DNA of 14,373 bases from a virus (Duplodnaviria > Heunggongvirae > Uroviricota > Caudoviricetes). The notes under the pieces were generated by a model. That model was not told where the DNA came from. It saw only the letters and a list, made by a program, of their open reading frames with translations, and did not search any database. The stretch lies in IMG/VR virus record IMGVR_UViG_2534681703_000013. One strand, written 5' to 3'. Within the stretch, counting starts at the first letter, position 1, and every line of letters starts with the position of its first letter. Below, piece by piece: positions 6,715 to 14,373 of this stretch. The position numbers and the translations under genes are program-made.

Positions 6715-7211
6715 TGCCGGTAATTAACACGCATCAGAATATCGCCGCCTTTCTCGACATGCTGGCCGTGTCCGAAGGGACGGCGAATCATCCGCTGACG
6801 AAAAACCGGGGCTATGACGTGATAGTCACCGGACTGGACGGAAAGCCGGAAATTTTCACCGACTACAGTGACCACCCGTTCGCGCATGGCCGACCGGCGA
6901 AGGTGTTTAACCGTCGCGGTGAAAAATCCACGGCCTCCGGTCGCTATCAGCAGCTTTACCTGTTCTGGCCGCACTACCGCAAACAGCTTGCCCTGCCGGA
7001 TTTCAGTCCGTTGTCACAGGACAGACTCGCCATTCAGTTGATCCGCGAACGCGGTGCACTGGATGACATCCGGGCGGGACGCATTGAGCGCGCCATTTCA
7101 CGCTGTCGCAATATCTGGGCGTCCCTGCCGGGTGCCGGTTACGGTCAGCGTGAGCATTCACTGGAAAAACTGGTCACCGTCTGGCGTACTGCTGGCGGCG
7201 TACCGGCTTAA
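6714..7211 (+). CDS. K: Endolysin gpK (165 aa).
   Basis: ORF track 6714..7211; matches recalled P2 gpK; start overlaps the Y stop (TAATG). Confidence 0.9.
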   Translation: MPVINTHQNIAAFLDMLAVSEGTANHPLTKNRGYDVIVTGLDGKPEIFTDYSDHPFAHGRPAKVFNRRGEKSTASGRYQQLYLFWPHYRKQLALPDFSPLSQDRLAIQLIRERGALDDIRAGRIERAISRCRNIWASLPGAGYGQREHSLEKLVTVWRTAGGVPA

Positions 7212-8639: not shown

Positions 8640-9084
8640 GTTTAAGCGTTTTGAAGACCGGCTGACCGGACTTATTGAATCGCTGTCACCGTCAGGGCGT
8701 CGGCGACTGAGCGCCGAACTGGCGAAACGTCTGCGGCAGAGTCAGCAGCGCCGGGTGATGGCACAGAAAGCCCCGGACGGCACACCCTACGCACCACGCC
8801 AGCAGCAGAGCGCCAGAAAAAAGACCGGTCGCGTTAAGCGAAAAATGTTTGCGAAACTTATCACCAGTCGTTTTTTGCATATCCGCGCCAGCCCGGAGCA
8901 GGCATCAATGGAGTTTTACGGCGGGAAGTCGCCGAAAATCGCCAGTGTGCATCAGTTCGGTCTGTCGGAAGAAAACCGGAAAGACGGTAAGAAAATTGAT
9001 TATCCGGCGCGTCCTCTGCTCGGCTTTACCGGTGAGGATGTGCAGATGATTGAAGAGATTATCCTGGCTCACCTCGACCGTTAG
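8632..9084 (+). CDS. S: Tail completion protein gpS (150 aa).
   Basis: ORF track 8632..9084; start overlaps the R end by 8 nt; length matches P2 gpS. Confidence 0.88.
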   Translation: MNEFKRFEDRLTGLIESLSPSGRRRLSAELAKRLRQSQQRRVMAQKAPDGTPYAPRQQQSARKKTGRVKRKMFAKLITSRFLHIRASPEQASMEFYGGKSPKIASVHQFGLSEENRKDGKKIDYPARPLLGFTGEDVQMIEEIILAHLDR

Positions 9085-9116
9085 TTGTGCCATTCCCGAC
9101 ACCTCATCGTCACATT

Positions 9117-9138
9117 GCCGCCGGTATGACCCGGCGGC
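9117..9138 (+). other. Perfect hairpin GCCGCCGG-tatgac-CCGGCGGC (8-bp stem, 6-nt loop) in the S-V intergenic region; possible operon-boundary terminator or 5'-UTR structure of the V transcript.
   Basis: Read directly from sequence; no U-tract follows, so intrinsic-terminator status is uncertain. Confidence 0.35.
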
Positions 9139-9150
9139 ATCCTTCCCGTT

Positions 9151-11043: not shown

Positions 11044-11647
11044 TTCGCGACTGCTGCCGACCGGCTCATCACCGCTTGAAGTCGCCGCCGCAAAAGCCTG
11101 TGCGGAAATTGAAAAAACGCCGGTCAGTATTCGTGAGCTGTGGAACCCGGATACCTGTCCGGCAAATCTGCTGCCGTGGCTGGCGTGGTCATTTTCGGTT
11201 GACCGCTGGGATGATAAGTGGCCGGAAGCGACAAAACGCGCTGTTATCCGCGATGCGTATTTCATTCACTGCCATAAGGGCACTATAGGTGCAATCCGCC
11301 GTGTGGTGGAGCCGCTCGGCTATCTGATTGAGGTGAGGGAGTGGTGGCAGCTCAACGAGGAGCCGGGGACGTTCCGCATCGTTGTTGGCGTGCTTGAGCA
11401 GGGTATTACCGAGGAAATGTATCAGGAGCTGGAGCGTCTCGTTGCTGATGCAAAACCTGCAAGCCGCCATCTGACAGGACTGGCTATCAGTTTAAGTACA
11501 ACCGGTAACATTTTTGCCGGTGCAGGATGCTATCACGGCGACGCCCTGACGGTTTATCCCTACACCCCGGAGGCCATTATTGTCGGAGGGGATTATTTCC
11601 CGGCCTCGGCCATTCATTTAATTGATAACCTGAGAGTAAACGCATGA
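11036..11647 (+). CDS. I: Baseplate/tail-fibre attachment protein gpI (203 aa; longer than the about 176 aa I recall for P2).
   Basis: ORF track 11036..11647; start overlaps the J end, stop overlaps the H start (ATGA). Confidence 0.85.
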   Translation: MSDSRLLPTGSSPLEVAAAKACAEIEKTPVSIRELWNPDTCPANLLPWLAWSFSVDRWDDKWPEATKRAVIRDAYFIHCHKGTIGAIRRVVEPLGYLIEVREWWQLNEEPGTFRIVVGVLEQGITEEMYQELERLVADAKPASRHLTGLAISLSTTGNIFAGAGCYHGDALTVYPYTPEAIIVGGDYFPASAIHLIDNLRVNA

Positions 11648-12972
11648 CAGTGAAATACTACGCCATTCTGACTAATCAGGGCGCAGCACGGCTGGCTAAC
11701 GCGACGATGCTCGGCAGTAAGCTGAATCTGACGCAAATGGCCGTTGGTGATGCGAATGGTGTCTTGCCGACACCAGACCCGGCACAGACAAAACTGATTA
11801 ACCAGAAACGCATCGCGCCGCTGAATCTTCTGAGTGTTGATCCGAACAACCAGAGCCAGATTATTGCGGAGCAAATCATCCCTGAGAACGAGGGCGGATT
11901 CTGGATCCGTGAGATTGGGCTTTATGATGATGAAGGCGTACTCATTGCGGTGGCGAACTGCCCGGAAACGTACAAACCGCAGTTGCAGGAAGGCAGTGGT
12001 CGTACCCAGACTATCCGCATGATTCTGGTTGTCACGAATACCGAAGCCATCACGCTGAAAATCGACCCGTCGGTGGTACTGGCGACCCGTAAATACGTGG
12101 ATGATAAAGTCCTGGAATTAAAGCTGTATGTGGATGACCAGATGAGAAACCACATTGCCGCACAGGATCCTCATACCCAGTATGCACAGAAACATAATCC
12201 GACATTTACCGGAGAACCAAAAGCGCCGACGCCTGCCGCAGGAAATAACACCACGCGGATTGCGACCACTGCGTTTGTACAGGCCGCTATTACCGCTCTG
12301 ATTAACGGTGCGCCTGACACGCTGGACACACTGAAAGAAATTGCCGCAGCTATCAACAATGACCCGAAATTCAGTACCACCATTAACAATGCGCTGTCAG
12401 GTAAGCAGCCACTGGATGAGACGCTGACTCATTTGAGTGGAAAGGATGTTGCCGGTCTTCTCGCATACCTTGGTTTGGGAGAAGGCTCTGCATTACCTGT
12501 TGGTGTGCCTGTTCCATGGCCTTCAGCCACACCGCCAACAGGCTGGCTGAAATGCAACGGTGCAGCTTTTTCTGCTGAAGAATACCCGGAACTGGCAAAG
12601 GCTTACCCGACAAATAAATTGCCTGATTTACGCGGTGAATTTATTCGTGGCTGGGATGACGGGCGTGGTATTGATGCTGTACGTGCCTTGCTAAGTCTTC
12701 AGAATGGAGGAGTGGAATCACACACCCACCAAGGGCAGCTCTTCAGAGTTAGTGATTATCGTACAAAAGAAATACCAGCATCAGAAGTTATGGGAAGAGG
12801 ATATATTGCAAGCCTGACGCCGGGTGCTGATAGCCCACTTGATTTTGATGATTATTCTGTATCTTCTAATCCAAATGGATATTTTGTCGGGAATCAGAGA
12901 ACAACAGCATATGGGATAAATGAAACCCGTCCACGGAATATTGCATTTAACTATATCGTGAGGGCTGCATAA
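11644..12972 (+). CDS. H: Tail fibre protein gpH (442 aa): constant N-terminal part followed by a variable C-terminal receptor-binding part containing a phage tail-collar-like motif (VGVPVPWPSATPPTGWLKCNGAAFSAEEYPELAKAYP...PDLRGEFIRGWDDGRGID).
   Basis: ORF track 11644..12972; position after I; collar-like motif recognised by eye; much shorter than recalled P2 gpH (about 669 aa), so mosaic. Confidence 0.85.
   Translation: MTVKYYAILTNQGAARLANATMLGSKLNLTQMAVGDANGVLPTPDPAQTKLINQKRIAPLNLLSVDPNNQSQIIAEQIIPENEGGFWIREIGLYDDEGVLIAVANCPETYKPQLQEGSGRTQTIRMILVVTNTEAITLKIDPSVVLATRKYVDDKVLELKLYVDDQMRNHIAAQDPHTQYAQKHNPTFTGEPKAPTPAAGNNTTRIATTAFVQAAITALINGAPDTLDTLKEIAAAINNDPKFSTTINNALSGKQPLDETLTHLSGKDVAGLLAYLGLGEGSALPVGVPVPWPSATPPTGWLKCNGAAFSAEEYPELAKAYPTNKLPDLRGEFIRGWDDGRGIDAVRALLSLQNGGVESHTHQGQLFRVSDYRTKEIPASEVMGRGYIASLTPGADSPLDFDDYSVSSNPNGYFVGNQRTTAYGINETRPRNIAFNYIVRAA
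12458..12483. other. Candidate site-specific recombination (inversion crossover) site: TTCTCGCATACC-TT-GGTTTGGGAGAA, 12-bp imperfect inverted half-sites around a 2-bp core, Hin/Gin/Cin/Pin type.
   Basis: Read directly. The half-sites match 10/12 as inverted repeats and fit the TTxTCxxAAACC half-site pattern of hix/gix sites. It lies inside H, encoding LLAYLGLGE, just upstream of the collar domain (constant/variable boundary). Confidence 0.6.
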
Positions 12973-13574
12973 TGGATAACGCTGTATTAAATAGCGAGTT
13001 TATTGCTACAAAGGCGGGGAATATTACCGTCTATAACTATGATGGCGAAACACGGGAATATATTTCCACATCAACTGAATATCTTGCTGTGGGTGTCGGT
13101 ATTCCGGCATTTTCCTGTCTGGAGGCACCTGGCATATACAAGGCTGGTTATGCAATTTGTCGCTCTGTGGATTTAAATTCATGGGAATATGTGCCAGACC
13201 ATCGCGGTGAAATCGTCTATAACACCGAAACGGGAGACGCCAAAGAAATCACAGCTCCGGGTGATTACCCCGAAAATACAACCACTATCGCCCCATTAAC
13301 GCCATACGATAAATGGGATGGTGAGAAATGGGTGACCGATACTGAGGCACAGCATTGCGCCGCAGTAGACGCGGCAGAAGCACAGCGCCAGTCACTGATT
13401 GATGCTGCAATGGCTTCCATCAGTCTGATTCAGCTGAAATTACAGGCCGGGCGGAGGCTGACGCAGGCAGAAACCACCCGCCTTAACGCCGTGCTGGATT
13501 ACATTGACACGGTGACGGCAACAGATACCAGCACCGCGCCGGATGTCATCTGGCCTGAACTGCCGGAGGTGTAG
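12972..13574 (+). CDS. G: Tail fibre assembly protein gpG (Tfa, 200 aa).
   Basis: ORF track 12972..13574; TAATG overlap with H; conserved Tfa C-terminal motif DTSTAPDVIWPELPEV. Confidence 0.85.
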   Translation: MDNAVLNSEFIATKAGNITVYNYDGETREYISTSTEYLAVGVGIPAFSCLEAPGIYKAGYAICRSVDLNSWEYVPDHRGEIVYNTETGDAKEITAPGDYPENTTTIAPLTPYDKWDGEKWVTDTEAQHCAAVDAAEAQRQSLIDAAMASISLIQLKLQAGRRLTQAETTRLNAVLDYIDTVTATDTSTAPDVIWPELPEV

Positions 13575-13989
13575 GCCATTCAATATCGGGGGCTGTTGAT
13601 GTATCAACACGCATCAGCAGCACACGGTATTTCTTCCATTGGGTGAGAGTTGAAGTTTCTTCATCAGTTGCGATACCAGCATCAACAGCATCCTGACGCC
13701 AGGATATTTCACTGTCAGCTTTTGCACGAAATGTGGCTTTCATGTTTTCTGCATCTGATATTTTCTGTTCTGGTGAAAGCGGCGGCTCATCAACCCATGC
13801 AAGGGTCCCTGAAACCATTCCCAGCATTTTTCCTGTTGGCTTATTTCCCCCATTAAATCTGACAGCATCCTCATCGCTGATTTCAATACCATCCTGCGGC
13901 CATGTCCCCTCCTTGATATAACTTTCATATAGCGCTGCGTTGTAGATTGCATTTTCGGACGGGCTGTAAACACTTTTAACTTTATTCAT
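13546..13989 (-). CDS. Alternative tail fibre assembly protein (Tfa', 147 aa) on the opposite strand, converging on G and overlapping it by 29 bp.
   Basis: ORF track 13546..13989; C-terminal motif VDTSTAPDIEWPTPP parallels that of gpG; GGGAGA Shine-Dalgarno 7-8 nt upstream of the ATG. Confidence 0.8.
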   Translation of the reverse strand: MNKVKSVYSPSENAIYNAALYESYIKEGTWPQDGIEISDEDAVRFNGGNKPTGKMLGMVSGTLAWVDEPPLSPEQKISDAENMKATFRAKADSEISWRQDAVDAGIATDEETSTLTQWKKYRVLLMRVDTSTAPDIEWPTPPAVQAR

Positions 13990-13993
13990 TCTG

Positions 13994-14373
13994 TTATCTC
14001 CCTTTCGCTATATAGCAAAGATTAAACCCACCGACGCCTGACATACGGGCTGTAAAACCCGTTCTTGAAGTACCAGTTGAGTTAACTCCATAAGCAGGCA
14101 TGGTTGTTGGAGAAAGCAGAGACTCCTGGATATCTGCCATTGTCAGTGTAATTGATTCGACCCGCGCGGGGAAAGGTAGCGGGAAAACAACATTCGTCCC
14201 TGTCTGTCCAACGGGGAAACCGAAAATACCCCATTGTCGTAATTACCCCTTCCGGCCCCTTACTCCATCCAGATTTAGGAATCGGCCAGTCTGCTGCTCC
14301 AGAGTGCCCCGTTGTAAAACTACTCATATCTGGTACTTGCCCGGTATCCGTTCCGACGTTCCTCGTTGCCGCT
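13994..14373 (-). CDS. Alternative tail-fibre C-terminal exon (Sv'-like), partial: open from beyond the window end. Two frames are open; the likely real C-terminus (...FPVGQTGTNVVFPLPFPARVESITLTMADIQESLLSPTTMPAYGVNSTGTSRTGFTARMSGVGGFNLCYIAKGR) ends at 13994, 4 nt before the Tfa' start.
   Basis: ORF track 14082..14327 is in a frame with no stop up to position 14373 (AATRNVGTDTGQVPDMSSFTTGHSGAADWPIPKSGW...). A second frame is open 13994..14242 and ends immediately upstream of Tfa'. Implies a 1-bp indel between 14085 and 14242. Confidence 0.55.

Follow-up and report, generated by a model that had tools for sequence, protein, structure and literature searches.

This locus raises the question of whether a 26-bp sequence inside the tail-fibre gene of a P2-like prophage is a working crossover site, at which a serine invertase exchanges one fibre tip for another, or a relic kept in a conserved stretch of the protein. 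Gin/Cin/Pin tail-fibre inversion switches are textbook systems. The DNA analysed here, called the window, is the complete 14,373-bp draft contig AQEY01000031.1 (assembly GCA_000355295.1), and the 26-mer TTCTCGCATACCTTGGTTTGGGAGAA occurs in it once, at 12458-12483 on the plus strand. An initial annotation had read this sequence as an invertase-type site that might be functional. We are highly confident that it is the crossover site on the fibre-gene side of an invertible segment of the Pin/Gin/Cin type, carried by a P2-like prophage. The site is very probably functional, and the earlier reading is supported by a partner site, an invertase gene, and both orientations of the segment in relatives of the window.

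The window covers the late region of a P2-like prophage. Portal and terminase genes lie on the minus strand, and the plus strand carries, in order, scaffold, capsid, small terminase, head completion, X, holin, lysozyme, lysA/B/C, R, S, V, W, J, I, H, and G. By Pfam families, this matches the late-gene order of P2-like phages (Peduoviridae), Q-P / O-N-M-L-X-Y-K-lysA-lysB-lysC-R-S-V-W-J-I-H-G, and relatives of the window are likewise annotated as P2-like prophages. The gap between S and V (9085-9150) measures only 66 nt in the window, whereas some relatives hold an extra minus-strand gene there (L002 2725-3468 and L011 2639-3424), which encodes ~250 aa with no Pfam family on record. Rfam, searched at gathering thresholds, gave no match. 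The fibre region is laid out as follows, where L001 is E. coli HCM-28C-2, a relative 99.5% identical over a 2.8-kb tail-fibre query.

11644-12972, plus strand: P2 H-like tail-fibre gene in its current state, 442 aa, constant N-terminus fused to a collar tip (open reading frame, translation, Pfam)
11644-12469, plus strand: constant fibre part Hc, outside the invertible segment (collinear up to the site between genomes of opposite orientation)
12458-12483, plus strand: left 26-bp crossover site, TTCTCGCATACC-TT-GGTTTGGGAGAA (gix/cix matrix score, unique in the window)
12470-12471, plus strand: 2-bp crossover core TT, putative point of staggered cleavage and strand exchange (start of the inverted alignment)
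12472-14372, no strand assigned: invertible segment, nearly whole, with only the inner half of the partner site missing (1912 bp core-to-core in L001)
12484-12972, plus strand: variable fibre tip 1 (collar domain), expressed in the window orientation (Pfam Collar)
12972-13574, plus strand: tail-fibre assembly (chaperone) gene 1, tfaE-like, 200 aa (Pfam Caudo_TAP)
13546-13989, minus strand: tail-fibre assembly gene 2, 147 aa, inverted and silent in this orientation (Pfam Caudo_TAP)
13994-14372, minus strand: alternative tip 2, gp53-like C-terminal domain, inverted, without its own start (translations; Pfam Gp53-like_C on the intact L001 copy)
14373, plus strand: first base (T) of the partner site TTCTCCCAAACC-AA-CGTTTATGAAAA, at the contig end (alignment with L001)

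The left site lies in frame in the H-like gene, where it encodes L272-E280 (LLAYLGLGE). Read as inverted repeats about the core TT, its two 12-bp half-sites agree at 10 of 12 positions, which confirms the position and symmetry first described. Dyad symmetry alone is unremarkable because three 26-mers in the window reach 10/12, where a binomial estimate gives ~0.5 expected. Symmetry was therefore rejected as stand-alone evidence, and the match to known sites of the family was counted instead. To avoid circularity, the weight matrix was built from only eight half-sites, those of the annotated Mu gixL/gixR and P1 cixL/cixR, taken from the annotated segment boundaries in the reference records. On this matrix, the left site scored 25.4 bits, compared with 6.1 bits for the next best position in the window and 16.8 for the best of 200 shuffles. 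This score bears out the hix/gix/cix-type architecture that had been proposed, and 12458-12483 has each element of a 26-bp site of this family: two imperfect 12-bp half-sites, a 2-bp core, and a consensus match. The observation of the site is real and far beyond chance.

The position of the site in the fibre is that of known switches. The H-like protein matches Pfam Phage_tail_fib (tail-collar fibre protein, N-terminal) at residues 1-150 and Collar at residues 287-334. The Collar domain starts seven codons downstream of the site, and LLAYLGLGE falls at the boundary of the constant and variable fibre parts, as had been claimed. The statement that S of Mu and S of P1 carry their sites at the equivalent junction holds in the annotated records, and the core position of the left site is the annotated P1 cix crossover position. 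Since no further site above 7 bits was found in the window or in L001, a shufflon-like third site was rejected and the locus is treated as a two-site system.

Downstream of the site, tip 1 and its assembly gene are followed by a second assembly gene and tip 2 in inverted order, a layout typical of invertible fibre segments. The two Caudo_TAP genes are in opposite orientation, one per tip. Tip 1 is 57% identical to the stfE-type tip of e14, and the tfaE-like protein is 88% identical to e14 TfaE. The inverted alternative cassette that the initial annotation placed here is indeed present, with the assembly gene at 13546-13989 and the gp53-like tip at 13994-14372, both on the minus strand. An inversion switch accounts for the absence of a separate start codon from the inverted tip. 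When the exchange at the cores was computed in L001, the fibre gene ran in frame into the gp53-like tip and encoded 405 aa. The constant 5' part is thus in frame with either tip, each with a chaperone gene, in the current state (442 aa) and in the computed flipped state of L001.

The partner site begins at the last base of the window and was followed in longer relatives. In L001, the sequence after the contig end reads TCTCCCAAACCAACGTTTATGAAAA. The site is completed in eight relatives, namely, L001, L002 (TUM2330), and the six contigs L009-L014, which encode an H protein identical to that of the window. Past the window end these relatives read TCTCCCAAACCAACGTTTA[T/A]GAAAA, with a single substitution in one of L009-L014, and the partner, TTCTCCCAAACC-AA-CGTTTA[T/A]GAAAA, lies inverted exactly at the window's end point. 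The cores, TT on the left and AA on the right, are identical when the sites are aligned in the same polarity. An inverted second site with an identical core is therefore present in the eight relatives, and the window holds its first base only. An inverted copy had been predicted beyond 14373. The inner half was exactly the predicted TTCTCCCAAACC, whereas the outer half differed from the prediction; a difference in the outer half-site between paired sites is seen also in Mu and P1.

The contig end itself coincides with this site. Contigs L015 and L017 also encode an identical H protein; L015 stops immediately past the AA core, and L017 falls 4 nt short of the site. Three independent draft contigs, including the window, thus end at or no more than 4 nt from the partner site. 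Draft assemblies appear to break systematically at the invertase-proximal site, and the crossover site would account for the ends of the window and at least two other contigs. These breaks fit mixed orientations in the sequenced cultures or repeats common to other pin-type loci. Some genomes carry up to 6 copies of pin-type loci, and such shared repeats could end contigs at the right site. The window contig runs unbroken through the left site.

A 197-aa gene with Pfam Resolvase and HTH_7 domains begins 55 nt past the partner site in all eight relatives, and in L001 the P2 sheath gene FI comes after it. The serine recombinase of roughly 190 aa expected beyond 14373 was thus found in every longer relative, with the gene itself outside the window. 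The relatives' recombinase is 86.7% identical to e14 PinE, 78% identical to P1 Cin, and 77% identical to Mu Gin. The catalytic Ser9 and the motif VRVSTNDQ (YVRVSTN-Q) are invariant in comparison with Cin and Gin, and the best match among solved structures is Gin (3uj3, E = 1e-94). Judging from the sequences of these relatives, the window's own genome presumably carries the partner site and the invertase gene as well.

The canonical requirements for inversion are two 26-bp sites and a Fis-bound enhancer (PMC3798978, citing Johnson & Simon 1985, Kahmann et al. 1985). The P1 enhancer is annotated at cin nt 19-90, and the homologous stretch in L001 aligns with it gap-free at 78% identity. Enhancers of this family have two Fis sites and lie in the 5' part of the invertase gene. 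Of the Fis-like G-N13-C 15-mers in the L001 stretch, the one at nt 22-36 is kept in L001 and Mu only, and the one at nt 71-85 is present in all three invertase genes. Identity at third codon positions in the enhancer stretch shows no clear rise against cin and gin, and conservation here is confounded by the coding sequence.

Both orientations of the segment occur among complete E. coli genomes. A 600-nt query across the computed inverted junction gave a contiguous match in four genomes, covering 600/600 nt at 97-99% identity in three and 95% of the query at 95% identity in the fourth. Four other complete genomes hold the window orientation (at least 80% of the 2.8-kb query). In this between-strain comparison of four complete genomes in each state, the end points of the inversion fall within the sites. 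L004 and L001 have collinear flanks and an inverted middle, with end points at L001 6868 and 8786, both contained in the L001 sites at 6859-6884 and 8773-8798. The inverted alignment of L003, L004, and L005 against L001 and L002 begins at the core position of the left site. L003 and L002 are in opposite orientation, with flanks that differ by 1 mismatch in 4321 bp (99.98%) on one side and are 99.6% identical on the other. Such near-identical flanks around opposite orientations indicate recent flipping and not an ancient rearrangement.

The pair L003 and L002 was dropped as a clean inverted pair for end points. The right end of L003 (strain 144) mixes the two tip sequences into a garbled, indel-rich hybrid that adjoins the right site, and for this reason L004 and L001 were used for the end-point analysis. 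Indels also cluster in the ~1.9 kb segment of the flipped-state complete genomes L003 (4300-6225), L004 (4300-6212), and L005 (4300-6205), with counts of 8, 13, and 25 gaps across these three assemblies. The flanks of L004 and L005 have zero gaps in ~6.7 kb, and the left flank of L003 has zero in 4.3 kb. The right-flank alignment of L003 has 7 gaps and begins 52 nt inside the segment. PGAP labels the segment genes "frameshifted" in flipped-state assemblies. The segment indels and the hybrid tip of L003 are probably a consensus artefact from reads of both orientations. An inversion switch would account for the clusters of "frameshifted" pseudogenes that are confined to the segment in long-read assemblies.

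Inversion of this kind is known in culture. Goldberg et al. (2014) demonstrated by experiment that inversion is ongoing in P2-like prophages of EPEC E2348/69, in which a hin-homologous invertase flips alternative fibre C-termini (PMC4272514). Both fibre states coexist in clonal cultures of that strain, as determined by sequencing (PMC4272514). One EPEC E2348/69 locus is a three-site, shufflon-like system (PMC4272514); the locus analysed here differs in having only two sites.

The evidence points to the following course of events. A serine invertase, encoded just past the contig end, would bind as dimers to the left site and to the inverted partner ~1.9 kb downstream, and the dimers on both 26-bp sites would assemble with the Fis-bound enhancer. 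Both sites would then be cleaved at the 2-bp core (TT at the left site; AA, or TT on the other strand, at the partner) through phosphoserine links. Rotation of the half-sites by 180 degrees and religation would flip the segment, and the matching non-palindromic cores (TT) would impose inversion as the outcome. H codons 1-275 would thereby be fused in frame to one of two tips, either the collar tip with the tfaE-like chaperone, as in the window, or the gp53-like tip with the second chaperone. The tip swap would be expected to alter the receptor specificity of the fibre. We infer the chemistry, the dependence on Fis and the enhancer, and the consequence for host range from family knowledge of Mu, P1, and related systems.

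The window site is equivalent to e14 pix, Mu gixL, and P1 cixR. A close counterpart is the Pin (P-segment) inversion system of e14, a defective prophage of E. coli K-12 (pinE, stfE/ycfK, tfaE/tfaP), whose pinE-proximal site, TTCTCCCAAACC-AA-CGTTTATGAAAA, is identical at 26/26 positions to the partner site of the relatives. The e14 ycfK site, CTCTCGAAAACC-TT-GGTTTGGGAGAA, shares the core TT and the whole inner half with the window site, and the 3 of 26 positions that differ are all in the outer half. The order of elements is also the same, with the constant fibre part, site, tip, tfa, inverted tfa, inverted tip, site, and invertase, and both segments measure ~1.8-1.9 kb. However, e14 is a lambdoid remnant, whereas the prophage here is P2-like (Peduovirus) and its fibre has a constant part of the P2 H type. 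The orientations compared also differ, and the collar tip expressed in the window is silent in the K-12 e14 record.

Mu and P1 resemble the locus in different ways. The Mu Gin/G segment has the same order, S-U-U'-S'-gin, with the invertase downstream and reading away from the segment. Its sites are likewise 26 bp long and built from 12-bp half-sites and a 2-bp core, and its crossover site is placed within the fibre gene where the constant part meets the variable part, as here. Mu differs in its core (TC/GA versus TT/AA here), in the length of the G segment (~3 kb), and in its unrelated constant fibre part. The P1 Cin/C segment shares the core TT/AA, and its fibre site in the S sense is TTATCCAATACC-TT-GGTTTAAGAGAA. 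The functional P1 cixR has an ATACC variant in the outer half-site, as does the window site. P1 differs in having cin at the opposite flank of the segment, as seen from S, and a C segment of 4.2 kb.

Phage P2 itself provides a reason to consider that the site could be a vestige, kept only for the conserved YLGL fibre junction with no inversion taking place. The N-terminal fibre domain of P2 H is homologous (~42% identity), and its YLGL junction contains a site-like sequence, TTATCGAATATC-TC-GGTTTACAGGAA (VIEYLGLQE; L020 2358-2383, NC_001895 13857-13882), whose inner half and core are those of Mu gixL. At 25.0 bits, this sequence scores as well as genuine gix/cix-type sites, although P2 lacks an inverted cassette, a partner site, and an invertase; the gene after G is fun(Z). 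The claim that P2 H carries such a junction without active inversion thus stands, and a high site score is possible where there is no activity. The window itself also lacks an invertase gene. Unlike P2, however, it contains a second chaperone gene and a second tip, both inverted, immediately downstream of the site, all longer relatives have the partner site and the invertase, and both orientations exist in nature with end points in the sites. The locus is set apart from P2 because of its cassettes, partner site, invertase, and two orientations, and a vestigial site is very improbable here. We regard it as still harder to credit that the junction is a hot spot of modular tip exchange, by homologous or illegitimate recombination, with the orientation differences as rare historical events. 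Similarities among many E. coli prophages do start or stop at or near the site, which shows shuffling of tips at the junction: matches H10-H12 and H20 to the 2.8-kb query begin at 860-871, and hundreds of inverted-junction matches end at 336-338. But the single mismatch in 4321 bp of flank between opposite states argues for recent flips, and the end points map to the 2-bp core region of a pair of inverted 26-bp sites beside a Pin-type invertase gene. Measurements in culture have also shown that prophage segments of this kind go on flipping (PMC4272514).

A different matter is whether this known type of switch is still intact in the strain sequenced here. Several indels distinguish the window from its relatives. 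An extra C at 14238 (TTGTCGTAAT in the window versus TTGTGTAAT in the eight other contigs long enough to cover it, L018 stopping short) is a 1-bp insertion that shifts the frame of the silent gp53-like tip, and it is unique among the ten contigs compared. The exact 36-mer across this insertion had no match in viral, GTDB-representative genome, or metagenome collections. At 276, a +1 insertion leaves a portal gene of 229 aa, truncated in comparison with the 344 aa of a 98%-identical relative. Four inserted bases at 2624-2655, at the 5' end of the terminase ATPase gene, leave a 558-aa open reading frame versus 590 aa in the relative, and a 4-bp deletion lies at ~3746, just after the scaffold gene, in comparison with the 98%-identical relative. 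These indels may be draft-assembly errors or signs of prophage decay.

If they are real, the prophage could be cryptic and the switch defective or decaying in this strain, with one fibre state a pseudogene and inversion either toggling between a working and a broken fibre or having no consequence. The insertions in the alternative tip, the portal gene, and the terminase gene would all agree with this, and e14 is a precedent of a defective prophage that still inverts (PMC4272514). On the other hand, the draft assembly is of 2013 vintage and may have introduced the indels, the insertion at 14238 appears in one contig of ten, and the genes between the affected positions are full length. We consider decay in this strain a possibility to be kept in mind, though not a likely one. 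Were the 14238 insertion real, a flip of the segment would leave this strain with a truncated fibre. Real frameshifts would turn the switch into one that toggles the fibre of a decaying prophage between intact and truncated, that is, an on/off phase switch in a cryptic element, possibly driven in trans by the invertases of other prophages; this further step is a speculative one that we think unlikely.

An active two-site crossover system at this locus would be ordinary and of a type already described: within the Hin/Gin/Cin/Pin family it belongs to the Pin type, and its host element is a P2-like prophage. Among 5426 complete E. coli genomes, 857 contain the module of partner site and invertase at a coverage of 80% or more. 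P2-like phage records with the relatives' invertase also exist, the closest being Peduovirus S164, at 99%, and a survey preprint reports that invertases are frequent at this P2 locus. With the module in about one-sixth of complete E. coli genomes and activity in P2-like prophages already measured, the locus adds little to the biology, and its practical value lies in annotation and assembly. For host-range prediction, a lysogen should be credited with two receptor-binding tips and not one.

The tips also show a minor difference beside the site. In TUM2330, the collar tip starts with GCGGCAAC (L002 6885-6892, corresponding to window 12484-12491), the same eight bases that start the alternative tip, which extends the inverted repeat to 22 bp. 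The window tip starts with GGCTCTGC, and 15 bp are identical. By sequence, the shared tip starts in TUM2330 hint at an exchange between the two tips beside the site.
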